A DNA stretch of 64,000 bases from Pseudomonadota bacterium (GTDB taxonomy: Bacteria > Myxococcota_A > Polyangia > GCA-2747355): assembly GCA_016711215.1 (NCBI GenBank), contig JADJTL010000001.1, forward strand, positions 1,144,067 to 1,208,066, given 5' to 3'. Made by a program: the position numbers and the translations under genes. Below the pieces are notes generated by a model. The model ran no database searches. It was given only the letters and a program-made list of their open reading frames with translations, and was not told the DNA's origin. Below are positions 1 to 62,012 of this stretch, piece after piece (position 1 is the first letter of the stretch; every line of letters starts with the position of its first letter).

Positions 1-877
1 CGCGCGTACCAGATCGTCTCCTCGGGTAGATTGCCGTACCAGATCAGCATGAACTGCGAGAAGGCGATATAGGACCAGAAGACCGTGAAGCCGAAGAGCA
101 GCTTGCCGAGATCATGGTAGTGCTCGACGCTGATGACGTCGCCGAGCACCCCGGCGCTACGCAAGAGCAGCCCGACCAGCGCGAGAAAGGCGAAGATCGC
201 GACGACGCAGCCGGAGAAGTAGTAGACGCCGAACATCGTCGAGTACCAATGCGGATCGAGCGACATCAGCCAGTCGAAGGCCGCGAAGGTCACTGTAAGC
301 GCGAAGAGAATAATGGCCGGGCCGCTCAGTCGCTGCAGGCGCAGGGTCGCCTCTGGGGCACCGTCCTGATCCTGTCGCAGGGAGCGCCGATAGAAGGCCC
401 AGGCCAGGGCGGTCCAGATGCCGAAATAGCCCAGCGCGCGCGCCACGAAGAAGGGGATGTTGAGGTAGGGCGTCTTGCTCGCCAGCAGCGCATCGTGCCT
501 GAGCGCGTCGGGGTGGGTCCAATGAAAGAGCTCATGGAGACCGCCGACGACGGGTAGAAAGAGCAGGCCGAGCAGGGGCAGCGTGATCATCGCGTGCTCG
601 GCCAACCGCCGCACGACGACGCTCCAACCCGCCCTGGTGGCGAACTGCACGATGACGAAGAAGAGCGCACCGAGCGCGATGCTGAGCCAGTAGAGCAGCG
701 CCACGAGGTAGGAGAAGTGAGCCTGGCGTGCAGCGCCCGCGCCGCGACCAAGCAGCCAGTGGGCCATCAGCGCGAGCAACCCGACGCTAGCCGCCGCCAA
801 GGAGAGCGCGCGCCAGGTCTTGGAGCGGGGCAGGCGGAGCTGCTCAGGGCGCAGGGTCGAAGGGGCGGCGTGCGTCA
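1..877 (-). CDS. actF: Alternative complex III subunit ActF (NrfD-like membrane subunit); 3' end lies beyond the window
   Basis: Not in the ORF track because it runs off the window edge. My translation of the minus strand from a GTG overlapping the actE stop gives a polytopic membrane protein (HWYSTMFGVYYFSGCVV, FSQFMLIWYGNLPEE) typical of NrfD/PsrC-like ActC/ActF, positioned directly downstream of actE. Confidence 0.7.
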
Positions 878-1546
878 CGGCGTCCTCCAGCCGCGTCGCA
901 CGACGACGTCAGGCGGTAGCTGATCGAGGGTGGCGTGGCCGGCGAGCTGGAGCGCGCGGACATAGGCGGCGATGGCCCAGCGATCGGTGACCGGGATGGC
1001 CCAGGCGTAGGAGGGCATGCTGCGCACGCCCTCGCTGATGACGCCGAAGAAGTGACCGATCGGCGCCTGGAGCAGACGCTGCTCGTGGTAGGAGGGCGCG
1101 GGTACGGCCATCTTGCGCGCGCGCAAGATCGACTCCCCATTGCCACTCGCTCCATGACAGGGTTGGCAGTAGATGTCGAAGCGCTCGCGGCCGCGCTGTA
1201 ACAAGTCGGCGGTCAGCGCCACGGGCAGGCGATCGGCTGGCTTTCCGTCAAGGGTGCCGCGATAGAGATGCTCGCTCTCGCGCAGCGCGCCGTGGGCGAT
1301 GGTGTTGGCCGGTGGCGTGCGCATCGCCCGCCCGTCGGCGAAGAAGGCATTGCTCTGCTGGGCGCCAAAGCGCGCCTGTGAAGCCATGTTCTGCTGCAGA
1401 TGAACCGGCGGTGAGCTCGATCGCCCACCGCGACAGGCGGAGAGGCCGAGCAGCAGCAGCGCCGCGACCCGAGCCGCCGCAACGAAGCCGCGTGCGTGGC
1501 GCCATCGCCGCGCCAAGAGCCTTGCTGCTTGCCTCAGCACGCCCAT
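875..1546 (-). CDS. actE: Alternative complex III subunit ActE, monoheme cytochrome c
   Basis: ORF track 223 aa; single CxxCH (CQPCHG); N-terminal hydrophobic segment with lipobox-like LSAC; sits between actD and actF. Confidence 0.8.
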   Translation of the reverse strand: MGVLRQAARLLARRWRHARGFVAAARVAALLLLGLSACRGGRSSSPPVHLQQNMASQARFGAQQSNAFFADGRAMRTPPANTIAHGALRESEHLYRGTLDGKPADRLPVALTADLLQRGRERFDIYCQPCHGASGNGESILRARKMAVPAPSYHEQRLLQAPIGHFFGVISEGVRSMPSYAWAIPVTDRWAIAAYVRALQLAGHATLDQLPPDVVVRRGWRTP

Positions 1547-1586
1547 CGGGGGCCTCCGTATGAGGGGGTCATTGGGCTTGGGGGCA

Positions 1587-2124
1587 TCATTGGGCCAACA
1601 GCTCGACGTGCGTCGCGCCGAGCTCCTTCAACCAACCGGGGGTCTGGTCGGGATCGAAACGCGGGTCCGCCGCCTCGACCGAGATGAAGAAGCGATCGTC
1701 GCCGACCCCGGCGAAGCGCTCGCTGCGAAACACAGGATGGTAGTGGCGAGGGAGCCGGTTGAAGTGCAGCATCCCCAGAACGCAGGTCAACGCGGCCGCC
1801 AGCACGCCGACCTCGAAGGTCACGGGGACGAAGGCGGGCCAGCTAAAATAGGGTTTGCCAGCGATCACCATCGGATAGGCGATGGTGCTGGTCCACCACT
1901 GCAGGCCGAGGCCGCCGGCGGCCCCGAGCATGCCGCCGACGAAGACGACCCAGGGCAGGCGCGAGGGGCGCAGACCCATCGCGCGGTCGAGTCCATGCAC
2001 TGGAAAGGGGCTATGGGCGTCCCAGCGCGAGAAGCCGCCATCGCGTAGGCGCTCGCAAGCGCGATAGAGCGCCGTCGGGTCGGCGAATTCCGCCAACACG
2101 CCCCAGGTCTCGGTGGCTGGCGTT

Positions 2125-2132
<8 letters not shown>
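1587..2132 (-). CDS. actD: Alternative complex III subunit ActD (membrane-anchored)
   Basis: ORF track 181 aa; hydrophobic segments; start overlaps the actC stop; position in the act operon. Confidence 0.65.
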
Positions 2133-3612
<1,480 letters not shown>

Positions 3613-3641
3613 ACGATGTGAACCTAGATCAGCGAGCCGGC

Positions 3642-6600
3642 TCAGCCGAGCTTGGGGTTGGGGTTGCGCACGCGCGCGAGGTAGGTCGTGCGCGGCTTGA
3701 GATTCATGTCGCCCAGCACCGCGTAGTTGCGGTCGCGCTGCTTGAGCTGCGCGACGCGGCTCCGCGGGTCATTGAGATCGCCGAAGACGATCGCCTCGGT
3801 CGGGCAGACCTGCTGACAGGCCGGCACCACCGTGCCGTCGGCGATGGTATCGCTGCCCGCGGCCTTGGCCGCGAGGCGGGCGCCGTTGATGCGTTGCACG
3901 CAGTAGGTGCACTTCTCCATCACCCCGCGAAAGCGCACGGTGACGTCGGGGTTGCGCTGCATCGCCAGCAGCGCGTTCTGCCGGTCGTGCTCGGCCTGGT
4001 AGTTGAAGAAGTTGAAGCGCCGCACCTTATATGGGCAGTTGTTGGCACAGTAGCGTGTGCCGATGCAGCGGTTGTAGGCCATGTCGTTCAGCCCCTCGGG
4101 GCTATGCGCGGTGGCGCCGACCGGGCAGACGCTTTCGCAGGGCGCCGTCTCGCAATGCTGGCAGGCCATCGGCTGCGTGACGGGCAGGGCGTCGTCGCTC
4201 TCGCCGCTGAAATAGCGATCGAGGCGAATCCAATGCATCTCGCGGCCGTTGAGCACGCGCTCCTTGCCGACGACGGGGATCGTGTTCTCTGACTGGCAGG
4301 CGATCGTGCAGGCGTTGCAGCCGATGCAGCTGCTGAGGTCGATCGTCATGCCCCATTGCCGACCCGTCGTGGGGTTGGGCGGCTCCCAGAGCAGGGTCTT
4401 GACCTCGGCGTCGGGCAGGAGCTGCGCGGCGCGGGCGAAGTCAGGGTCGCGCTGGTACTGCGCCAGCGTTGCCTCCTGCACGATCGGGCGGCGCTGGCCG
4501 GTCAGGGGCTCGATCAGCGTGCCGTGGTCCTGCGTGCAGGCGAGCGCGTAGTGCCCGCGCAGGTGGCGCAGCCTGACGCCTTGGGCGAAGCGCGAGGCGT
4601 CGACGGTGCGCAGCGCGTTGGCGTTGAAGCCGCGGCCGTCGGCCACCGGGCCGCTATGCTGGCGACCATAGCCCAGCGCCAAGGCGACGCAGCTCTCTGC
4701 GACGCCCGGCGTGATCCAGACGGCGGCCTGCAGGCGGCGACCATCATGTTCGAGCTCGATCAGCTCCTCGGACTTGAGCCCGAGCCGGCGCGCCGTGGCT
4801 GCCCCGATCAACGCCGCGTTATCCCACGTCAGCTTGGTCACCGGATCGGGCAGCTCTTGCAGCCAGGCGTTGCCGGCGAAGCGGCCGTCGTAGAGCGTCG
4901 CGTCGAGCTGAAAGACCAACTCCAGGCGTTGGTCGGTGGGGGCCGGTCTATCGAGGGCGTCCTGCGGGCGCGCCGTCCGGGCGTCCCGATCGGCCGAGCC
5001 GCTCGAGCCCTCGAGCGTTGGTCGCGCTGCGGGCCTGCCGGCGAGCTGGGTCGCAAGCGCCTGCCACTCGTAGGTGGGGCTGAGCGCGGCGAGCTCAGCC
5101 GGGCGCTGCCCGTCATGGACCAGCGCGCGCCAGCGACGCTCGTGGCTGGCCTCATCGGCCCCGGCCGGCAGCAGGCCTGCATAGGCTGCGGTCGCCGGGC
5201 GGCGCAGCAGCGTGTAGCCATCGTGGAGCTTAGAGGCGATCAGGCGCGCAACGAGCTCGATCGGCGAGAGCGAGGCGAAGAGGGGCGCGATCAGCGGCTG
5301 CTGCACGCTGATCGTGCCGTCGGCGGCGCGGAGATCGCCCCAGGCCTCGAGGAAGTGGCTTTGGGGCACGACCCAGCGCGCCAGCGCCGCGGTCTCGTTG
5401 GCCGTGGGGCAGAGGTAGATCGTCGACGGGACGCGGCGCAGCAAGGTGCCGAACTCGAGATCGGCCGGCGCGTCATAGACCGGGTTTCCGCCGACGATGA
5501 CCAGCGATGAGACGGTCTCGGCCCGCAGCGCCGCGGCGAGGGCCTCGATCCCCTCGCAGTCCGCTGCCAGGTCGGGGTAGTAGCTGACCGTCTGGCCGAC
5601 GCTGCCGAGCAGCGCGTTGGTCAGCTGGCCGAGCGCATGGACCAGCGGCGGCTGCCCTTCGCCAACGATGATCAACGCCCGCCCGCGATGGGCGAGGAGG
5701 TCCTCGGCCAGCGCGCCAATCCAGCGCTGATGCGCGGCGCTCGGCGCGCGCGCCCGCAGGCGCGCCAGGAGCTGCTCGGCGCCGGCGGGCGCCGGCAGGG
5801 AAGGCGCGAGCTTGGCGACCAGGTCGGCGAGAAAGCCACCCACCTGCGAGGCCGCCAGGCGCAGGCGATTGTCGGCGTTCATCCCCGTGACGGTGAAGGC
5901 TGGCTCGACCACGTAGAGCCTGTTCATCCCGTCGCGCGGGCTGGTGAGGCGCCGTCGTTGGGCAAAGGCGCGGGCCTGGCGGACGACGTCGCCCTCGAGG
6001 CCGAGCGGATCGGCGTCGAGGGCTAGCACGACATCGGCGCGATCGAGCGCATAGCAGGGCCGAGCCCCCTTCAGCCCGACGAGTGCTGCGCCGGCCAGGC
6101 TCTGCCGTGGTTGGGCCGCGTCGTGGACGTAGAGGCGTGCGTGCGGGTAGCGAGCGCGAAGCTCGCCCAGCAGCGCGTGGAGCGTCGGCGAACGGAGGTC
6201 CTGCAGCAGCAGCGCCAGGCCGCGCCCCTGCTGCCGCTCGAGGCGCGCCGCGAGCCCGGCCAGCGCGGCATCGCGCTCGCGCGTGGAGACCGAGCGGTCG
6301 CCGAGGCGCGTGCGCCGCAGGCGCTGCGGGTCGTAGAGATCGAGCACGCTCGCCTGCAGGAAGGTGTCGGTGGCGCCGCGACTCATCGGATGGTCGGGGT
6401 GGCCCTCGATCTTGGTCGGGCGTCCGTCCTGGCTCTCGACGAGCAGGCCGACCACCCCCCCCGTGAGCTGGGCGGCGGTGGCGTAGTAGCGCGGCTGTCC
6501 AGGGACCAGATCCTCGGGCCGCTGGTTGAAGGGCAGGATCAGCTCGCGTGGCTTGCGCACGCAGCCGCTCAGCGTGGCGCCGGCGAGGGTTAGCGAGGCG

Positions 6601-6797
6601 CCCATCACCCCGAGGAAGTCGCGGCGCCCGACGTGGTCGAGGTCGAGCTGCGCGGCATTGGGCGGAAACTCGTCGCGCTGGGCAGCCTGCGCTGGATCGA
6701 TCGGCGCGCCCTCGGCATTGAGGCTGCGCCAATGACGCGGGGCGGTGGCGTTTCCCTCGGCGGTGGCAGCGGGGGCGTGCACTCTAGGCGTAGTCAT
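3642..6797 (-). CDS. actB: Alternative complex III subunit ActB (molybdopterin-oxidoreductase-like domain fused to 4Fe-4S ferredoxin domain)
   Basis: ORF track 1125 aa. Twin-arginine signal [17 protein letters not shown]; C-terminal Cys clusters ([38 protein letters not shown]). The tracked start at 7019 overlaps actA, so the start is placed at the internal Met (MTTPRV) abutting the actA stop. Confidence 0.85.
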
Positions 6798-7522
6798 CGG
6801 TGGCACCCCGAGCAGTGCAAGGGCGGCTCGAGCTGGCGCTTGCGCCGCGGATCGCGCGCGGCGACGTAGCCCGCGGCCGCCGGGTCGTAGCCGAGGTCGG
6901 TGACTTTGTCCAACGGACCCACCCGGCCCGCTGGGTTGCGGTGGCAGTCCAAGCACCAGCTCATGCTCAGCGGCTGGACCTGGCGCACGACCGTCATCTG
7001 GTCGACGCGGCCGTGACACTGCACGCAGCCGACGCCCGCGGCCACGTGGACGCGGTGATCGAAGAAGGCGTAGTCGGGCAGCAGGTGAACGCGCACCCAG
7101 GGGAGCGGCAGCCCGCTGGCATGGGCGATGCGCAGGGGCGCGAGCTTGACGGTCTCGGGCAAGATCAGCTTCTCGTGACAGCCCATGCAGGTCTGCGTCG
7201 GGGGCACGGCGGCGACCGGCGCCCGCTCGACGGTGCTGTGGCAGTAGCGGCAGTCGAAGCCGAGCTCGCCCGCGTGGAGCTTATGGCTGAAGGGGACGGG
7301 CTGGATCGGCTCGTAGCCGACGTCGGTAAACGAGGGAGAAAACCAGTACCAGATCGCGCCGACGACCGTCGCCAAGACCACGGGCAAGGCCAGGCCGAGG
7401 TAGAGCGGAAGACGATTGGTCCAGCGCGGGAAGAGCGGGGTCACGGCTTGTCGACGCTCCCTCGGTAGCAGTAGTCGCCGGCAGTCGCCCCAGCGGCTTC
7501 GATCCCGGGCGACCTCGAGCAC
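6794..7522 (-). CDS. actA: Alternative complex III subunit ActA, pentaheme cytochrome c
   Basis: ORF track 242 aa; five CxxCH motifs (CRYCH, CMGCH, CVQCH, CLDCH, CSGCH); N-terminal membrane anchor. Confidence 0.85.
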   Translation of the reverse strand: MLEVARDRSRWGDCRRLLLPRERRQAVTPLFPRWTNRLPLYLGLALPVVLATVVGAIWYWFSPSFTDVGYEPIQPVPFSHKLHAGELGFDCRYCHSTVERAPVAAVPPTQTCMGCHEKLILPETVKLAPLRIAHASGLPLPWVRVHLLPDYAFFDHRVHVAAGVGCVQCHGRVDQMTVVRQVQPLSMSWCLDCHRNPAGRVGPLDKVTDLGYDPAAAGYVAARDPRRKRQLEPPLHCSGCHR

Positions 7523-15937: not shown

Positions 15938-16693
<756 letters not shown>

Positions 16694-16697
<4 letters not shown>

Positions 16698-17671
16698 GCT
16701 GGCTGCTCCGCCGGCTCGTGCACGAGGCTGACGAAGATGTCCTGAAGCGAACTCTGGCTGGTATGGAGGTCTTTGAAGTCGATGTCGAGCGCGCGCAGTC
16801 GCTCCAGCAGCGAGGCGATGCCCGTCTCCTCTCGTTGCGCGTCGAAAGCATAGACCAGCGCGCGATTGGCATCGGCGAGCTCGAGCGCGAAGTCCGAGAG
16901 CTCGGCCGGGAGCTGGTCGAGCGGCGCTCGCAGGGTCAGCTTGAGTTGCTTCTTGCCGAGCTTGGCCATCAGCGTGTTCTTGTCCTCGACGAGGATCAGC
17001 TCGCCCTTGTGGATCACGCCGATGCGGTCAGCCATCGCTTCGGCCTCCTCGATATAGTGCGTCGTCAGGATGATCGTGACGCCCTGTTCTCGGAGGCGGC
17101 CCACCATCGTCCACATGTCGCGTCGTAGGTTGACGTCGACGCCGGCCGTCGGCTCATCGAGAAACAGGATTCGCGGCTCGTGGGCCAGGGCCTTGGCGAT
17201 CAAGACCCGTCGCTTCATGCCACCCGACAGCGTCATGATCTTGCTGTCTCTCTTTTCCCACAGCGAGAGCTCCCGCAGCACCCGCTCGAGGTAGGCGGGG
17301 TCCGGGGCCTTGCCGAAGAGGCCGCGGCTGAAGTTGACCGTGGCCCAGACGTTCTCGAACGCGTCGGTCGAGAGCTCTTGCGGCACCAGGCCAAGCTTGG
17401 AGCGCGCGGCCCGGAAGTCGCGGATGATGTCGTGGCCGTCCGCGTTGACCGTGCCGCTGCTAGGGTTGACGATGCCGCAGACGATGCTGATCAGCGTCGT
17501 CTTGCCAGCGCCGTTTGGGCCCAGCAGCGCAAAGATCTCCCCACGCCGAATCTCGAGGTCGAGCGCCTTCAGCGCGCGGAAGCCGGACGCGTAGGTCTTG
17601 CTCAGCTGACGAATGCAAACGATCGGATCCACGCGAGCTCCGGCGGCAAGGGCGCAGCGTAGGGGAGGCAT
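16694..17671 (-). CDS. ABC transporter ATP-binding protein (ABC-2/DrrA-like)
   Basis: Walker [10 protein letters not shown], signature LSGGMKRR, Walker B ILFLDEPT; tracked start at 17830 would overlap tRNA-Ser, so the internal Met (MPPLRC) is used. Confidence 0.85.
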
Positions 17672-46987: not shown

Positions 46988-47901
46988 GCCTGCTCGTCGT
47001 CGGCAGCGTGGCGCTCGACTCGGTCACCACCCCCCTCGATGCTCGCGAAGAGATGCTCGGCGGCTCGGCGTCGTTCTTTGCCATGGTCGCCTCGCTGATT
47101 ACGCCCGTGCGCCTGGTGGCGGTGGTCGGGGAGGACTTCCCCGCGGAACACCTGGCGCTCTTGCGCGAGCGCGGCGTTGACCTGGAGGGGTTGCAGCGGA
47201 CGCCAGGACGCACCTTTCGCTGGCGCGGGCGCTACCTCCCCAACTTCGTCGACCGCGAGACGCTCGATACTCAGCTCAACGTCTTCGAGCACTTCCATCC
47301 GCGACTGCCCGCGCCTTGGCGCGACTCGCGCTACGTATTCCTCGGCAACATCGCTCCACAGCTGCAGCTCGAGGTGCTGCAGCAGGTCCAGCGACCGGCG
47401 CTGGTCGGCTGCGACACGATGAACTTCTGGCTGCACGAGCCCTGTGTGACGACGTTGAAGGAGGTGCTGAAACGCACCCAGGTGCTCTTCCTCAACGATG
47501 AGGAGGCGCGCCTGCTCTCGGGTCAGCATAACCTCGTCAAGGCGGCCGCGGCGATCCGCCTGCTCGGCGTGGATCATGTGGTGATCAAGCGCGGCGACGC
47601 CGGGGCGCTGCTCTTCGACGACGGTGGGCCCTTCTGGGCGCCGGCCCTTCCGCTCGCGCAGGTGGTCGACCCGACGGGCGCAGGGGACTGCTTTGCCGGC
47701 GGCTTCATGGCGTACCTGGCGCACACCGGCGACCTCGGCCTGGCCAATATCCGGCGCGCGATGATCTTCGGTAGCACGACGGCCTCCTTCGCCGTCGAGG
47801 ATTTCAGCGTCGACCGCTTTCGCTCGGTGAGCCGCGCTGACCTGTTGCAGCGTTGTGCTGAGTTCGCGCGCCTCGTGCACTTCGATCCGGTGCAGCTCTA
47901 G
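46984..47901 (+). CDS. PfkB-family carbohydrate/nucleoside kinase
   Basis: PfkB signature [13 protein letters not shown]; start overlaps the mtnP stop. Confidence 0.75.
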
Positions 47902-47932
47902 GGCGCCGCGCGGGACGCGCCTCAGGTCGTTC

Positions 47933-48418
47933 GTGAACCACGACGTCGGCACGATTGCTTGCAACACCGCGCGGCGCACGCGCACCTGCGGCCGCCGGCT
48001 CGGGCTGCTGCTCCAGCCGGGCGACGTCGTCGGGCTCGAGGGCGAGCTGGGCGCTGGCAAGACGCTCTTCGTTGGCGGTGTGGCGGCTGGACTGGGCCTC
48101 GCGCCGGGCTACCGGGTGGCGAGCCCGACCTTCACCTTGATCAACGAGTACCCGGGCCGCTTGCCGATCGTTCATGTGGATCTCTATCGGCTCGACGACC
48201 AGGCCGAGATGCAGGAGATTGGCATCCTCGATTACCTCGGCGGTCCCTGCGTCTGCCTGGTCGAGTGGTTCGGTCGCCTCGCCGGCGCCCGGCTGCCCGA
48301 CCATCTGCAGGTGACGATCGAGGTCACCGGCGACCACACGCGGCGCTTGAGGGTTGCGGGTAGCGGCCCGCGCGCGAGCGAGCTGGTGCGGCGCTGGATC
48401 GCCGCGTGCGCGTCTTGA
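47933..48418 (+). CDS. tsaE: tRNA threonylcarbamoyladenosine biosynthesis protein TsaE
   Basis: GELGAGKT P-loop, SPTFTL and VHVDLYRL motifs; start inferred, since the tracked ORF is N-terminally over-extended. Confidence 0.75.
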
Positions 48419-48456
48419 CGTTGGCGCGGCGTGCCGCCGATACTGCGGCGTGCGTT

Positions 48457-48533
48457 GCGCCCGTAGCTCAGTCGGATAGAGCGTCGGACTTCGAATCCGC
48501 AGGTCGGGTGTTCGAGTCACCCCGGGCGCACCA
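48457..48533 (+). tRNA. tRNA-Arg (anticodon TCG)
   Basis: GCGCCCGTAGCTCAGTCGGATAGAGCGTCGGACTTCGAATCCGCAGGTCGGGTGTTCGAGTCACCCCGGGCGCACCA; acceptor GCGCCCG/CGGGCGC; anticodon loop CTTCGAA. Confidence 0.8.
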
Positions 48534-48569
48534 AGCCAGCCTCCGCCGCTACGACGCGCCCGGCCCCGG

Positions 48570-50760
48570 CGCAGGCGATCGCCGAGGCGGCTGCAACGCT
48601 GCTCGACGCGGTCGTTGCGGACGGCGATTCCCAGCGCCTTGCGGCTGCCGACGATGACCACCAGCCGTCGAGCGCGGGTCAGCCCGGTGTAGACCAGGTT
48701 GCGCTGAAGCATCGCATAGTGCTGCGTGTGCAGCGGCATGACGACGACGGGGTATTCGCTGCCCTGGGCCTTGTGGATCGAGCAAGCGTAGGCCAGCACG
48801 AGCTCGTCGAGCTGGCCGTGCTCGTAGCGCACCAGGCGCTCGTCATAGCTGACCGTGAGCTGCTGCTCGTCCTCGTCGATCGACGCGACCCGGCCGATGT
48901 CGCCGTTGAAGACGTCGAGATCGTAGTTGTTGCGGAGCTGCATCACCTTGTCGCCGATCCGCAGCAAGCGGCTACCGCGGACTAACGCCGGTCCCGTGGG
49001 ATTGAGCAGGGACTGTAGCTCGGCGTTGAGGTTGATCACCCCGAGCAGCCCCTTTCGCATCGGCGTCAGCACCTGCACGCCGAGGGTCGGGTCGACCTTG
49101 AAGCGGCGCGGGATGCGCTCGCCGACGAGGTCCTTGATCGTCGCGAGGATCTGGTCTGGGTCGCCCCGCTCGATGAAGTAGAAGTCGCTGAGTTCTCCGC
49201 TCTCCTGCTCGCTCGTCATCGGCGGTAGCTCGCCGTGGTTGATGCGATGGGCGTTGACCACGATCTGGCTGCGCTGCGCTTGGCGAAAGATCTCGGTCAG
49301 GCGCACGACGCCGGCCCAACCCGAGCCGATGAGGTCGCGCAGCACGTTGCCCGGCCCGACCGAGGGGAGCTGATCGACGTCGCCGACGAGGATCAGCTGC
49401 GCCGCCGGCGGCAGCGCCTGCACCAGCGCGTGGAATAACACGATGTCGATCATCGAGGTCTCGTCGACGATCAGGGTGTCGACCTCGAGTGGACGCTCGC
49501 CGTCGCGCTCGAAGCGCTGCGTGCGCGGCGAGAACTCGAGCAGGCGGTGAATCGTGCGCGCCTCCTGGTCCGTGGTCTCGGCGAGGCGCTTGGCGGCGCG
49601 GCCCGTCGGGGCGCAGAGGAGGATACGGCGCCGTCCCCTACGAGCAGGCGCAGGATCGCATTGACGATCGTGGTCTTGCCGGTACCCGGGCCACCGGTGA
49701 TCACCAGCACCTTGCGCCGGGTGGCCTCCTCCACGGCCTGGCGCTGCTGCTCGGCAAGAGCGAGCTCGCGTTCCCGCTCGAAGCCCTCGATCGCCAGCGC
49801 GGCCCCCGCCAGGGGCGCCAGCGGGACCTCGCCGAGCTCCAGCAGTCGGGCCGCGGCTCCGCTCTCCGCGGCGTGCAGGGCCTTGAGGTAGATCGCGTCG
49901 TCCTCGGGGAGGGGCTCGCGCACGAGGGTGCCGGCGGCGAGCTGCGCGGCGATGGCCTCTTCGACCGGCAGCACGTCGAGCTCGAGGAGCTGCGTGGCGG
50001 CCGCGACTAGCCGCTCGTGCGGGAAGAAGACATGGCCCTGGTCCGCCAACTCGCCGAGCAGGTAGCGCACCCCGGCCTCGGCCCGCTGGGGTGAGTCGCG
50101 CGGGATCCCGAGCGAGGCGGCGATCTTGTCGGTGCTCTTGAAGCCGATGCCGACGACGTCCGAGGCGAGCTGGTAGGGGTTCTGGCGCACGACGGCGATC
50201 GCTCGCTCGCCGTACTGCTTGAAGACCCGCACGGCGTAGGCGGTGGAGACCCCATGCGTCTGCAGGAAGATCATCACCTCCTTGATCGCGCGTTGCTCAA
50301 GCCAGGCCTCGCGAATGCGCAGCGAGCGCAGGGGTCCGATGCCCGCGACCTCCCGCAGACGCTCGGGCTGGTTCTCGATCACGTTGAGGGTCTCGAGCTG
50401 GAAGCGCTCCACCAGGCGCGCCGCGATGCCGCGACCGAGCCCCGGGACGAGGCCCGAGGCGAGGTACTTCTCGATGCCGACGAGCGTCGCCGGTTGGATC
50501 GTCAGGTAGCTGTGGACGCGGAACTGCTCGCCGTACTTGCGGTCGTTGACCCACCAGCCGCGCAGGCGCAGGTTTTCACCCGGCTGCACGCCGAGCAGGC
50601 TACCCACCGCGGTGACCGTGCGCTGCTGCTGCAGGACGGTGATCCGCACCACGCTCCAGGCCGTCTCTTCGTTGGCGTAAACGACGCGGTCGAGCGCACC
50701 CTCGAGGACCTCGGGCGGGTCGCCGACGGGAGCTTCGGCGCGATGGCGATGGCCAGACAT
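48570..50760 (-). CDS. recD2: RecD2-like ATP-dependent DNA helicase with apparent -1 frameshift near 49625 and no nearby in-frame stop (possible pseudogene or sequence error)
   Basis: Two tracked ORFs: 49471..51531 carries the N-terminal domain and Walker [10 protein letters not shown] then becomes nonsense; the correct continuation ([18 protein letters not shown]...[11 protein letters not shown]...[16 protein letters not shown]...[14 protein letters not shown]...[17 protein letters not shown]) is in another frame (47804..49453), which then reads antisense through tRNA-Arg. Confidence 0.7.
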
Positions 50761-51067: not shown

Positions 51068-53539
51068 TCAGCGAGCCGGCCTTTCCTTTGGCCGCGCGCT
51101 CTCGGTGCCGAGGCGCAGGACGAGTTGATCGAAATCGCGCCGCGAAATGGGCCCTGTCCGGCCGCGGAAAGGGCGGAAGCCGCCGTCGCCCTCGGGTGGT
51201 GTGTGCTCGGAGAGCCCCGGCACGTTCCAGATACCCTTGGACTCACTATCGGCCGGATCGTTTGGCGGCAGGCAGGCAAGCAGCGGCGTGGCGACCATCT
51301 GAGAGGAGGCCTTGGCGAGCGCCCGCCGATACGCTGCGTCGAGCTCCGAGGTCCACGGCCCGTGGCCACCCGACGGGGGGTTCTGCGGATCGATTCCCGC
51401 CGGAAGCTCGCCGGCGCGCTCCAGCCAGGTGAGCAGCTCGTAGCGCCAATGCGGTAGGCGCGCTTGCCAGCGGCTCGCCTCCTCGTCGGAGATCTTGCCC
51501 AGGCGGCGGAGCAGCCGGAGGTCAGCGCCATTCCATACCGCCCCGACGGGCGGCATGTCCCAGGTGGAATACGCCGCCAGCGCGCTCGACTCGTAGGACC
51601 TCGGCGACGCGAGGGGTGGAACGACGCTCCCTCGGAAGGCGTCCCAGTCGTAGGCCCAGCGGGCCAGCGCGTAGCCGTAGAGCCCCGCCTGTCTTCTCTT
51701 CTCGTCGAAGCCAGCGGGTGGGGTGCCGAGGTTCTCGGCGATCACCAGGCAGTGATGGCGACGACTCAGGAGGGTGATCACCGCCATCAGCTCCGGGAAG
51801 GGGTAGGCCACGTAGCCAGATCGCGCTGCGTCAAAGGCGCCGTCGGCAGTCCAGGCCGGCGAGAAGAGCCCGTGGATCCAGAACGCGTTGTCGAGACGTA
51901 GCCCGCCGGCGTTCGCCATCGAGCGCGTCAGCCTCGCCGCGAAGCGCGTCAGCCCATCGCGGATCATCGCCAGCGGATTTCGGATTGATCCGCCCCAGTC
52001 CTGGGGCAGATTCGGCGAGGTATCGTCGGGTGGCGCCCCTGCGTGCATGCCGCGCAGGTAGCCGTCGGGCCATTGCTCAACCTGAGGACCATTGGTGACG
52101 ACGGGCTGGTCCCTGATCCAACCGAGGGCCATCGGGGCTGCGCCGTCGGCGCGCGGATCGACGGCGGCCTCGCGAACTGCCAGCTCTTGCACCGCATAGG
52201 CCCACTCTGTGAAGAGCGCGAGCTCCGGATCGCGCAGCTTGCGGCGGCGGCCCAGGTCGAGGCCGGCGTCGCGTTGGGCTGGATGCTGGGCGACCCAGGC
52301 CTGGTACGCGCCCCAGGCCTTCCCCGGGACGCCGCCAGCGCCTGCCTGCGCCTTGAACCAACCCCAGAGAGTAACGAGCCCCTGCGTCGTCAGCCTCGAG
52401 ATCAACGTGGGATTGAGCTGCCGAGCGCTAAGGGCCCTTGTGCGCCGCGAGGCAAGGGATCCCTGGAAGACCGGGTCTGAGAAGCCGATCTGCCGCGCCA
52501 GCACGCCGAGATCGACCATTCGCGGGTCGCCGTGACCGGTGTGCAGCGTGTCGTAGGGGCTCGCCGCGCTCGGGTTCACCATCGTCGTCGGTGGCGTCGA
52601 CACGCCGTCAAAGCCGGCGCTGCGCGCCGCCGCCACGACCCGCCGCAAGGTCTCGAGATTCCCCGCGCCGACGCCCTGCGCGCCCTCGAGGTTGAGCGCC
52701 GCGATCGGCGTCTCGAGGATGGCGATGCGCTTGCCCGCGGGAAGCTCGTGCGCCCGCTGTGGCGCGATCACGAGCGTCATCGCGCCCGCTATGCTCCGAG
52801 GCGAACCGCCCAGCCCGTGGCTCACGCGAACCTGGTGCATGCCGAAGCGCCGCTCGCCGACCTCCGCAGTGAGGGTTCGCACCAGCGCGGGCACATCGAG
52901 CATCCGGTAAGCGGGTGCCGGCGACGCGTCCGACTCGGCACCACCAAAGGCTGTGCCTCCTGCGCGGCGGCGAGGCGCAGGCCGCAGGCGCGCGCTGATG
53001 TCCCTCCAGGCGCCTGCTTCCTTCGCTTCGTCCTCGAGGCGCAGCTCGACCTTGAGGCCAGACCACGCACCCGCTGCGCCACCCGCCAGGCCGAGGCGCA
53101 AGCGCGGCATGCCCTCCGTCTCCGGATGACCTTCCTGGAAGGCATGGAGCCAGGGCAACGCGTTGGCCCGCCGCTCGGCGTTCAGCGCCTTGAGCGCTGC
53201 GCCGAAGCCCATGCCCTCGCCGCGCCACGGCGCGATCACCGCCCCGCCGACGCGCTCGAAGAAGCGAGGGTCGGCGTGCACCTCGCGCCAATCGACCGAG
53301 CTCAGGTATTTGGGGTGGGCGAAATGCGCACCGAGGTGCCGCTGGGCACGGGCCTCAGCGGTCCGCTTCGCGCTTGGCTCGGCTGCAGCGACGTCCTGCG
53401 CCGCTGCCAGCGACAGGAGGGCCGCGAGCAGCAGGGCAGACGGGTCGGCCGCCGCCGCCCTAACCAAGGCCTGGCCCGCGACGATCGCTTGGCTGCGGTT
53501 GGCGCTCGCGTCTGGTGTTCGTGTCTGGCGCCATTCCAA
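51068..53539 (-). CDS. Secreted GH77-like (4-alpha-glucanotransferase family) protein with long N-terminal extension
   Basis: C-terminal motifs resembling the GH77 RIDH and EDLG regions (LRLDNAFWIHGLF, LVIAENLGTPPAGF); N-terminal ~400 aa of unknown function. Confidence 0.45.
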   Translation of the reverse strand: MEWRQTRTPDASANRSQAIVAGQALVRAAAADPSALLLAALLSLAAAQDVAAAEPSAKRTAEARAQRHLGAHFAHPKYLSSVDWREVHADPRFFERVGGAVIAPWRGEGMGFGAALKALNAERRANALPWLHAFQEGHPETEGMPRLRLGLAGGAAGAWSGLKVELRLEDEAKEAGAWRDISARLRPAPRRRAGGTAFGGAESDASPAPAYRMLDVPALVRTLTAEVGERRFGMHQVRVSHGLGGSPRSIAGAMTLVIAPQRAHELPAGKRIAILETPIAALNLEGAQGVGAGNLETLRRVVAAARSAGFDGVSTPPTTMVNPSAASPYDTLHTGHGDPRMVDLGVLARQIGFSDPVFQGSLASRRTRALSARQLNPTLISRLTTQGLVTLWGWFKAQAGAGGVPGKAWGAYQAWVAQHPAQRDAGLDLGRRRKLRDPELALFTEWAYAVQELAVREAAVDPRADGAAPMALGWIRDQPVVTNGPQVEQWPDGYLRGMHAGAPPDDTSPNLPQDWGGSIRNPLAMIRDGLTRFAARLTRSMANAGGLRLDNAFWIHGLFSPAWTADGAFDAARSGYVAYPFPELMAVITLLSRRHHCLVIAENLGTPPAGFDEKRRQAGLYGYALARWAYDWDAFRGSVVPPLASPRSYESSALAAYSTWDMPPVGAVWNGADLRLLRRLGKISDEEASRWQARLPHWRYELLTWLERAGELPAGIDPQNPPSGGHGPWTSELDAAYRRALAKASSQMVATPLLACLPPNDPADSESKGIWNVPGLSEHTPPEGDGGFRPFRGRTGPISRRDFDQLVLRLGTESARPKERPAR

Positions 53540-57432: not shown

Positions 57433-58719
57433 ATGGCCACGGCACGCTGCCTCTGCGCCGAGCTCGGTCCCGAGCGCCTGGCCCAGGGGGAGGCCTTCGT
57501 CTGTGGGCGCGTGTTGGGCGTCGATCCTGCGCGGCGTGAGCTGATCGTCGTCGACCGCTCAGGTCGGGCCTGCGTCGCCTTACCGGAGCCCTTGCCGCTG
57601 CCGAGCCCGGGGGACATCGCGCGCCTCGAGCTGGGCCCCGCGTGGCCGGCCTGCGCCGCCGCTCTTCAGGTGCTGACGCCCTATCGTCGCGCCGAGCCCT
57701 TTCCCTCGCCCGGCGCGGATTACTATCGGCTGAACGCGGGCACCAGCAGCCGCGCGGAGCGGCTTCGCTTGCGCGCGCGTTTGTTGGCCGCCGTGCGCGG
57801 GTTCTTCGACGCAAGGGGCTTCGTCGAGATTCAGAGCCCGCAGCGCGTCGCCTGTCCGGGGCTAGAGCCGCAGCTCCTGGCCGAGCCGGCGGGGGAGGGG
57901 TTCTTGATCACCTCCCCCGAGTATCAGCTCAAGCGCCTGTTGGTCGCCGGTTTCGAGCAAATCTACTTTCTCGGCGGCTGCTGGCGCGCCGACGAACGCG
58001 GACCGCTGCACCTCAATGAGCTCTGCATGCTCGAGTGGTACCAGGCCTACGATGAGCTCGAGGCGCTGCTGCTGCTGACCGAGGCGCTGCTGCGCGCGGT
58101 GGCGCAGCAGGTCCTCGGCACGCTGCGACTGCGCTGGGGCGGTATGGAGGTCGATCTCGGACAGCCCTTCCGCCGCCTGAGCGTCACGCAGGCGCTGCGC
58201 GAGCTCGCCGGGCTGCAGCTCCGCGGGCCGCTCGACGATCCGCGGATGCTGCGTGAGGCCGCGCTGGCGGCGGGTATCGGCCCCTTCGCTGCCGACGCCG
58301 ACTACGACGAGGTCTTCTCGCGCATCGTCCTCGAGCGCATCGAGCCAGCCCTGGCGACGATGGGCGCCGTCTTCTTCACCGACTTCCCGGCCCCGCTCGC
58401 CGCGCTGGCCCGCCGCCACCCGCGCGATGCAGCGCTGGCGCGACGCTCTGAGCTCTATGTGGCGGGCGTCGAGCTGGCCAACGCCTTCGAGGAGCTCACC
58501 GATCCAGACGAGCAGCTCGCCCGACTCCGTGCTGATCAGGCGCTGCGCGCGCGCCGTGGGCTGCCCATCTACCCGATCGATCAACGCTTCATCGAGGCGC
58601 TGCGCGAAGGCATGCCACCGAGCAGCGGTATCGCCCTCGGCGTCGACCGCCTACTGCTGCTGCTGAGCGGCGCGAGCCACATCGACGAGACGGTGGCCTT
58701 CGCCACCCCTGAGCTTTGA
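57433..58719 (+). CDS. epmA: EF-P lysine aminoacylase EpmA (GenX/PoxA, lysyl-tRNA-synthetase-like) with N-terminal extension
   Basis: Class II aaRS-like core (FVEIQSP, ELCMLEWYQAY, GIALGVDRLLLLL); directly downstream of efp. Confidence 0.75.
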   Translation: MATARCLCAELGPERLAQGEAFVCGRVLGVDPARRELIVVDRSGRACVALPEPLPLPSPGDIARLELGPAWPACAAALQVLTPYRRAEPFPSPGADYYRLNAGTSSRAERLRLRARLLAAVRGFFDARGFVEIQSPQRVACPGLEPQLLAEPAGEGFLITSPEYQLKRLLVAGFEQIYFLGGCWRADERGPLHLNELCMLEWYQAYDELEALLLLTEALLRAVAQQVLGTLRLRWGGMEVDLGQPFRRLSVTQALRELAGLQLRGPLDDPRMLREAALAAGIGPFAADADYDEVFSRIVLERIEPALATMGAVFFTDFPAPLAALARRHPRDAALARRSELYVAGVELANAFEELTDPDEQLARLRADQALRARRGLPIYPIDQRFIEALREGMPPSSGIALGVDRLLLLLSGASHIDETVAFATPEL

Positions 58720-58789
58720 GGGCGCTGACCGAGGCGTCTTCGCTCCGGATCGCCTGCGGCAGCGAAGGGCCAAGCCGTTGGCGGCGCGG

Positions 58790-58835
58790 ATGTTGCATTG
58801 CGATTGCAAGATGTTGCAATTATTCTCTCGGATGG
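58790..58835 (+). promoter_or_regulatory. AT-richer segment with repeated/palindromic TTGCA(A) motifs upstream of the hypothetical gene
   Basis: ttgcattgcgattgcaagatgttgcaattattc seen in sequence; markedly lower GC than surroundings. Confidence 0.25.
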
Positions 58836-58882
58836 TGGCCCAGGGCAGAATCCCCTCTCGTTTTCAGCGAGCAGCGTCGGCG

Positions 58883-60304
58883 ATGCAAGCGACAACAAGA
58901 GCGACCGGGCAAACGACAGGGCGGCGAAGACTGCTGGCGGCGCTGGTCGCAGCGCTCGTTGCACCCCAGTTGCCATCGCTTGGCGCCAACCGCGGGCCGC
59001 AGGGGCGGGCCTGGATCAGGCTGGCCGCGGCTCGGCCTCAACCCAGGGCGCGCCGCCTCTCCGCCGCGGCGTGGGCGATCGCGGAGCACGCGCCACAGAC
59101 CTTGGCACGGGCCAGATGGGCTTATGGCGTGGTCTGGATGGGAGATATCACGCCGGTGCAGCTCATGGCGCACGCGCTGCTGGAGAATGCCTACGCGACT
59201 GCGTCGACCGCTCCTGCGGCGGCCAAGCTCTATCCCTACGAGACCTTCCTGGCGTGGCGCCTTCGCGACCTCAGCCTGGTGGAAATCCTGCAAGTGCGGC
59301 GCGCGGTGAAGGCCGGGGCGAGGCAGTGGGCCGAAGCGGCAAGGATTCGGGGACCCAGAGCGAAGCCGGAGGGCAGGAGTGATCGGGGCAGCGAGGTGGA
59401 TGCGGTGGTCCGGACCCGTCGGCTGGCGCTGGAACTGACGCGTAGGGCGTGGCACGACGCGGCGAGCATGGAGCGCTTGCTGCGCGCATCGCTGCCGCCA
59501 CAGACCCTTCGAGCGCATGACGAGCCGTTGGCCGCGTCGCTCGCGACCGCCGCGGACTTGCGCCCTGGGGGAGCGAGGGTTGGGCTCCTCGGGGCGCTCG
59601 CCTGGAAGGTCGATACAGCCCGAAGATCGCTTATCCCCCCCGCGCTGCGTCCGAGGGAAATCGAGCGGTGGGTCGAGGCGCTGCATGGCGACCTGAAGCT
59701 GCGCGTTGGATTGGGCGACGGTTCAGCGGGCCCGGTCAGAGTGCTGGTCGGATCACTGAGCGAGGTGTCGTGCCCGACGCCTAATGTGAACGGCTCATAC
59801 GCCTTCACCACCGGCGAGGCGGAGACGATGCACCGATCGGCTGAGCGCCGGCGGCAGCTCGCTGAGGTTATGGTGGATACCTTGCTGCACGGGAGGTGTC
59901 CTCGCGAAGTTCTGCCCCGCGCGCGGGACGCGATAGTTCGTCTTGCTGGGCACTTTGAGAGGGATCTCAAGGAGGCTTTCCCGGGCGAGGGCGGCGCCCC
60001 TGACCTCACTGACGGCCAACCCGGCGTCGAAGCGCGCCTGCGCCGCGTCGAAGCGCGCCTGAGCACAGCCGTGCAGGCGCTGCCCGCTGACTTGCACGAG
60101 CTCCTCCGTCCTCTGGGCGAAGTGGCGACCGAAAGCGCTGGATCAGCAAATGGCGAGGCTTCGCCTGGGGAAGGGTGCTGGTCGCGGCTGGATCGCCATT
60201 GGACCGCCCTCGAGGCGCTGGTCGAGGCCCAGGATGACCTCGAGGCTTGGGCTGAGGTCGCCGCTGCCCTTGAACCGGAGCGACCCCGCCGCGTTCGCGA
60301 GTGA
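58883..60304 (+). CDS. Hypothetical secreted protein (possible Tat/Sec signal), atypical codon usage
   Basis: ORF track 508 aa with probable internal start MQATTRATGQTTGRRRLLAALVAALVAP; many A/T-ending codons (aca, aga, caa, gat, aat, gaa, ata, gtt, ctt, tca) unlike neighbouring genes; no recognisable domain. Confidence 0.5.
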   Translation: MQATTRATGQTTGRRRLLAALVAALVAPQLPSLGANRGPQGRAWIRLAAARPQPRARRLSAAAWAIAEHAPQTLARARWAYGVVWMGDITPVQLMAHALLENAYATASTAPAAAKLYPYETFLAWRLRDLSLVEILQVRRAVKAGARQWAEAARIRGPRAKPEGRSDRGSEVDAVVRTRRLALELTRRAWHDAASMERLLRASLPPQTLRAHDEPLAASLATAADLRPGGARVGLLGALAWKVDTARRSLIPPALRPREIERWVEALHGDLKLRVGLGDGSAGPVRVLVGSLSEVSCPTPNVNGSYAFTTGEAETMHRSAERRRQLAEVMVDTLLHGRCPREVLPRARDAIVRLAGHFERDLKEAFPGEGGAPDLTDGQPGVEARLRRVEARLSTAVQALPADLHELLRPLGEVATESAGSANGEASPGEGCWSRLDRHWTALEALVEAQDDLEAWAEVAAALEPERPRRVRE

Positions 60305-60383
60305 GCGGCCCGCGTTAGCCGCAGTCGGCGCGGGGCGCCCGCCCCCGACGGGGTCGACCAGATCAGTCGCGGGTGCGACCGGA

Positions 60384-62012
<1,629 letters not shown>

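Follow-up and report, generated by a model that had tools for sequence, protein, structure and literature searches.

A helicase gene in the stretch of DNA analysed here (64,000 nt of contig JADJTL010000001.1, referred to as the window) is spread over two reading frames and has no stop codon at its expected end. This raises the question whether the bacterium has lost the gene, expresses it in an unusual way, or carries an intact gene that is misrepresented in the assembly. With one base restored at the frame break, the two parts were translated as a single protein of 733 aa, and this repaired translation was scored against the RecD2 equivalog TIGR01448, for which a curated cutoff of 500 bits is used. 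A score of 860.2 bits was obtained, with residues 21-729 aligned to profile positions 1-712 of 713. A match of this size over nearly the whole equivalog is, judged by the repaired protein, not due to chance, and it bears out the preliminary description of this locus, in which a RecD2-like helicase split between two frames had been proposed. In the window itself, recD2 was not found as one uninterrupted ORF ending near the end of the TIGR01448 profile. Compared with RecD2 of Deinococcus radiodurans (PDB 3E1S) the repaired protein gave an E-value of 1.8e-79, and the alignment ran through the junction without a gap. All SF1 helicase motifs (I, Ia, II, III, V and VI) were present and aligned with 3E1S, with motif I (GGPGTGKT) at residue 356 of the repaired protein, Ia at 383, II (IVDETSM) at 431, III at 458, V (SIHKAQGSE) at 661 and VI (VYTGLTRAR) at 690.

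The domain set of RecD2 was complete when both frames were taken together, comprising OB_YrrC, HHH_RecD2, the P-loop helicase core, SH3_13 and UvrD_C_2. The order in the repaired protein (OB_YrrC, HHH_RecD2, P-loop 1A, SH3_13, UvrD_C_2) was that of known RecD2 proteins. Unlike the members of this family (TIGR01448; PDB 3E1S/3GP8; Bacillus subtilis RecD2/YrrC), the ORF in the window is interrupted after motif I and carries no stop at the usual C-terminus. The RecD subunit of RecBCD (TIGR01447) was considered as an alternative identity and rejected, as the score of 274 bits lies below the cutoff of 310 for that family. RecD of RecBCD (Escherichia coli RecD, PDB 1W36 chain D) shares the SF1B motor core with the window protein, as seen in the same 274 bits and in an E-value of 1.3e-41 to 1W36_D; in contrast to RecD, the window protein bears the RecD2-specific N-terminal OB and HHH domains. 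Because of the score below the RecD cutoff and these RecD2-specific domains, the protein was assigned to RecD2 and not to RecD. On the evidence of its sequence, the split gene is the orthologous single-copy recD2, encoding an SF1B 5'-3' DNA helicase, of a high-GC, Myxococcota-like bacterium. For the repaired protein, an ATP-dependent 5'-3' helicase/translocase activity is predicted from its family.

The gene lies on the minus strand. Its 5' part in the original frame (49631-50760) starts with the ATG at 50760, the start codon and its upstream context being common to the two closest relatives described below. It encodes OB_YrrC (PF23139, residues 17-90), HHH_RecD2 (PF14490, residues 155-245) and the first portion of helicase domain 1A, as far as the residues LLVGDG. 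The Walker A sequence, helicase motif I (GGPGTGKT), is found at 49672-49695, as aligned to 3E1S. After LLVGDG the frame continues for 51 out-of-frame residues, rich in Ser, Arg and Pro, and is closed by a premature TGA at 49471-49473. The remainder of the helicase is encoded in the -1 frame (48572-49630), which contains motifs Ia, II, III, V and VI, SH3_13 (PF18335) and UvrD_C_2 (PF13538), and reaches to RCSRLGDRL. The AAA_19 profile of 134 positions was cut cleanly by the break, the first frame matching positions 1-39 and the second positions 43-134. It had been stated before that the N-terminal ORF turns into nonsense after Walker A and that the true continuation lies in another frame; the presence of motifs Ia to VI in the -1 frame from 49630 onward is in full agreement with this.

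In order to place the break at the nucleotide level, intact relatives are required. Among 5.8 billion proteins the closest were intact single ORFs, namely P0001 with 741 aa (89% identity) and P0002 with 737 aa (86% identity). The former originates from the MAG GCA_016702545.1, contig JADJDT010000005.1 (locus L001), the latter from the Logan assembly of SRR14092388 (locus L002). The nearest relatives were all MAG or metagenome sequences. Among the matches listed, all 120 homologues were single uninterrupted ORFs. A three-way DNA alignment of the window, L001 and L002 was colinear from the start codon to the tRNA gene behind recD2 and contained a single one-base gap, located in the window. Compared with the window, recD2 of both relatives holds one extra base at the break and an in-frame TGA before the same tRNA. 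MAFFT set the gap between 49631 and 49630 (GACGG-CGCCGT). The lost base is equally assignable to a GGGG run slightly upstream in the gene (49638-49635), as the window, L001 and L002 differ from one another in the four residues that precede the conserved Arg-Arg. From the DNA alignment, the interval that is one base short of the intact orthologues was therefore taken as 49630-49641. A Viterbi scan of the frames gave the switch at 49626/49627. The initial estimate of about 49620-49635, with one base missing, was thus accurate, as the gap at 49631/49630 falls inside it and exactly one base is lacking relative to two intact orthologues. When metagenome contigs were scanned for the exact pattern spanning the shift site, the extra base being optional, no match was obtained.

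The gene order of L001 is like that of the window (ychF ... recD2 / tRNA-Arg(TCG) / tsaE / pfkB / PNP), and on L002, a contig of 2.7 kb, nothing but recD2 and, behind it, the same tRNA-Arg is found. Synteny with L001 extends over 22 kb, and within this region all 13 genes of the window other than recD2 are of full length. The window differs from L001 in an ORF between recD2 and ychF that has no counterpart there. This ORF of 823 aa (51071-53539, minus strand) matched GH77 4-alpha-glucanotransferase only in part (profile 198-405 of 465, 84 bits), and the corresponding gap in L001 measures only about 1.3 kb. A further difference concerns an EpmA/PoxA-like protein with a class II tRNA-synthetase fold, which has 428 aa in the window (57433-58719, plus strand) and 604 aa in L001 (5063-6877, minus strand). 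The extra 180 residues in L001 are of low complexity (FFSPSFFSFLFFSLPSFSPFSPPPP...) and have no counterpart in the window, pointing to a lost stop or a frame error of the L001 gene itself.

Genes with programmed -1 frameshifting, for example dnaX and those of IS3-family transposases, are a known case of one protein made from two frames. The window recD2 is like them in being spread over two overlapping frames that lie -1 apart. This geometry would suit recoding, in which the ribosome would shift by -1 near 49635 and full-length RecD2 would be made. No heptamer of the type X XXY YYZ was found within 49641-49630, the only interval that homology permits. The nearest one (CCCGGGT at 49690) sits in Walker A, upstream of residues that are still encoded in the original frame. 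The 89 nt downstream folded with a minimum free energy of -26.3 kcal/mol versus a shuffle mean of -31.1 (z = +1.45), and 191 of 200 shuffles folded at least as well. Moreover, the shift was absent from L001, L002 and all 120 listed homologues, each with a single ORF, and recoding would leave the missing stop unexplained. Programmed -1 frameshifting in recD2 was consequently regarded as extremely improbable and rejected, since the slippery heptamer, the stimulatory structure and the conserved shift that mark the dnaX and IS3 type of gene are all lacking here.

The second peculiarity of the gene is found at its 3' end. The homology to RecD2 ends at RLGDRL (48572), and the frame is then open for 252 more codons until the first in-frame stop, a TGA at 47804-47806 (minus strand). 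This agrees with the early observation of a stop missing around the expected C-terminus near 48570, the next stop being that at 47806-47804. The first 13 codons behind the homology (48534-48571) form an unconserved C-terminal tail without in-frame stop. They are followed by a convergent tRNA-Arg(TCG) gene on the plus strand (48457-48533; RF00005, 69.6 bits) and by tsaE, also on the plus strand (47855-48418; PF02367, 117 bits), which is syntenic in L001. As had been noticed at first inspection, the open frame reads antisense through both, spanning 48457-48533 and 47855-48418. At a GC content of 70% the frame stays free of stops because it is the antisense shadow of tsaE. Close by, a sigma-70-like promoter match was observed at 48415-48444 on the plus strand (TTGACG, an 18-nt spacer and GATACT). 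It directly precedes tRNA-Arg and overlaps the stop codon of tsaE; shuffling the region 50 times produced no such match.

Long open frames on both sides of the break might also point to a helicase made as two subunits that reassemble, or to a natural C-terminal extension of 252 aa on the 3' ORF. The break falls between motifs I and Ia and so divides the RecA-like domain 1A. In the 3' frame no start codon occurs before the ATG at 49453, past motif II, so that a separate C-terminal piece would be devoid of motifs I, Ia and II. The 252-codon extension shows no coding signal of its own, being the antisense shadow of tRNA-Arg and tsaE. Neither arrangement was observed in any homologue (L001, L002 and the 120 listed). 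In view of the domain cut, the late start codon and the missing coding signal, a functional split or extended RecD2 was rejected as scarcely credible.

Two routes to the lost stop are compatible with the tail. It contains a GGGG run (48567-48564) and, in the next -1 frame, a TAG at 48551-48549. One more missing base upstream of this TAG would restore a tail of normal length ending RLRRGPGAS-stop; one candidate is a G lost from the run at 48567-48564, which would then have had five. Alternatively, the tail holds an in-frame GGA (48544-48542) and an in-frame TGG (48538-48536), each a single substitution away from a stop. A former TGA or TAG may have mutated into one of these codons, and the stop could be lost by such a point substitution rather than by a second indel. 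The tails of the relatives after RLGxRL vary, with 10 further residues and a stop 9 nt before the tRNA in L001, and 6 further residues and a stop 40 nt before it in L002. Beyond RLGxRL the tails of the window, L001 and L002 were not alignable with each other, which leaves an indel and a stop-codon substitution indistinguishable from sequence, and the second lesion was not placed. The alignment to intact RecD2 orthologues that had been recommended earlier for both sites located the indel but did not place the second lesion.

Two disabling lesions, the frameshift and the loss of the stop codon, are of the kind expected in a pseudogene. We consider a real and very recent pseudogene a serious possibility, if a somewhat doubtful one. 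It would have arisen when 1 nt was deleted between motifs I and Ia and a second mutation then abolished the stop, whether by an indel in the tail or by a substitution (for instance TGA to GGA, or TGA/TAG to TGG). The product would be 429 residues long (378 native and 51 out-of-frame residues); it would be without a working ATPase, and RecD2 function would be lost. In favour of this, the one available sequence does contain the lesions, and the C-terminal tail is mutationally labile, as its length and its sequence differ between L001 and L002. The loss of RecD2 would be tolerable, since the protein is non-essential in the bacteria studied so far and modulates replication restart and RecA activity without performing an essential step (PMC8989531, PMC12143592).

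A gene without function is expected to lose its constraint, and the decay of recD2 was examined by Nei-Gojobori dN/dS. Values of 0.129 (window versus L001) and 0.146 (window versus L002) were obtained, with 0.118 before and 0.147 after the break. For comparison, the pair of intact recD2 genes from L001 and L002 gave 0.163, and ten intact neighbouring genes ranged from 0.07 to 0.26. When aligned with 120 homologues, the window protein departed from the consensus at 19 of the positions with at least 90% conservation, and its two intact sisters at 18 and 21. Changes private to the window at positions with at least 97% conservation were limited to E536D and L690V, both of them conservative. Relaxed selection in recD2, as raised dN/dS or as loss of conserved residues, was not found. 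The undecayed state indicates that purifying selection acted normally until very recently at most, and that the lesions are either very young or absent from the organism. This speaks against the pseudogene. As dN/dS is close to 0.13 before as well as after the break, and conserved-position changes do not exceed those in the intact sisters, the neutral period must have been very short, and two independent hits within it become less likely.

The frame quality of the window as a whole was assessed with a six-frame codon-usage Viterbi scan, which reports every direct same-strand frame switch; a GC3 threshold scan was too noisy for this purpose. Exactly two internal frame breaks were detected among roughly 56 genes, one in recD2 and the other in a gene for an ABC-2 permease of the YadH/PRK15066 type. 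The remaining same-strand switches were ordinary gene boundaries, where an upstream stop overlaps or adjoins a downstream start. The frame-broken permease gene (15938-16697, minus strand) lies 32 kb from recD2 and lacks 2 nt in a CG repeat (ACCGCG(CG)CGTC, 16328-16319). Its halves matched profile positions 6-129 and 131-256 of 257, and the joined protein of 253 aa scored 231 bits against a cutoff of 225. Nearly all of the best 120 permease homologues have 253 aa and the remainder are a few residues longer; in an alignment of the repaired permease with seven homologues, T-A-R-x-F-V-P was invariant across the junction. From the homologue length and this invariant stretch it follows that the window is without two bases in the CG repeat. 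The joined permease was 82-84% identical to intact homologues of 253 aa, and the upstream ATPase gene of the same pair (about 16694-17671) is intact. G4 runs lie inside both recD2 intervals and the CG repeat lies at the permease break, but at 70% GC runs of this kind are frequent, and real mutations cluster in them as well. The homopolymer-length spectra of the window and L001 revealed no informative difference.

Taken with the permease, the data lead us to regard the recD2 lesions as probably, though by no means surely, uncorrected indel errors in the assembly consensus rather than mutations. This lineage is known from MAGs only, and many MAGs derive from long-read assemblies. Residual homopolymer indels that fragment genes have been documented in long-read assemblies and MAGs (PMC9262707, PMC12007338). 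Both recD2 lesions are repairable by lengthening a G4 run, and small deletions at G runs or at a CG repeat would account for all the lesions. The consensus may, for example, have been called one base short at each of the two G runs (49638-49635 and 48567-48564). Restoring both would yield a RecD2 of 740 aa that ends in RLRRGPGAS and is followed by the TAG at 48551-48549. The organism would then make a normal RecD2, and the pseudogene would exist only in the record. A free-living bacterium is estimated to carry fewer fresh pseudogenes at any one time than two per about 56 genes. Two fresh, undecayed lesions in conserved single-copy genes among about 56 genes thus fit random consensus errors better than standing pseudogenes. 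If recD2 were a genuine pseudogene, an equally fresh frameshift in an unrelated conserved permease would have to be a coincidence. The similarity of the two frameshifts tilts the balance modestly toward sequence error.

The distribution of the lesions stands against errors in the consensus. Two lesions in the 2.2 kb of recD2, with 13 syntenic neighbours intact, represent an event of about 10% under uniformly scattered errors. Two disabling hits in one gene next to intact neighbours would come about more readily if that gene was dead already, which supports the pseudogene. Furthermore, short G runs and CG repeats are hotspots of replication slippage in living cells as well.

A third way to account for both genes takes the two frameshifts as real and fresh. 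The lineage would have just lost RecD2, its rate of indels and slippage would have been raised, and a natural mutator would have been caught in the act. Bacillus subtilis recD2 mutants have a mutator phenotype. RecD2 has been linked to replication-fork progression and to RecA control (PMC8989531, PMC12143592). A loss of RecD2 would explain the undecayed CG-repeat frameshift in the permease gene 32 kb away. We regard this as very unlikely.

Consensus errors remain the explanation that we favour for recD2. The pair of alternatives put forward at first inspection, an inactivated helicase or two sequence errors, is supported by the analysis. The locus is biologically ordinary, consisting of a known helicase gene with a trivial lesion, and it presents neither a new mechanism nor a new family. 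Its relevance lies mainly in annotation hygiene. Gene callers would deliver a truncated N-terminal fragment and a spurious ORF of 549 aa that runs antisense across tRNA-Arg and tsaE. A frameshift flag on the locus, or a corrected consensus, is called for. The locus also hints at possible indel errors in the consensus of the contig. Should the lesions be real, the bacterium would lack RecD2, a modest consideration when its DNA-repair repertoire is inferred.

Two further regions of the window drew attention during the inspection. No coding signal was obtained in the codon-model scan for 58708-60386 (1.7 kb). An ORF of 508 aa in this region (58778-60304, plus strand) gave no Pfam hit, and the GC3 of its enclosing stop-to-stop frame was 0.75, below most coding ORFs of the window. 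At the beginning of the window, 1-7465 on the minus strand resembles by eye what we take to be an alternative-complex-III-like cluster. It presumably includes a multihaem cytochrome c that bears CxxCH motifs (6794-7465), after which come what we assume to be a large subunit of the molybdopterin/FeS type (3642 to about 6730) and presumed further membrane and cytochrome subunits.
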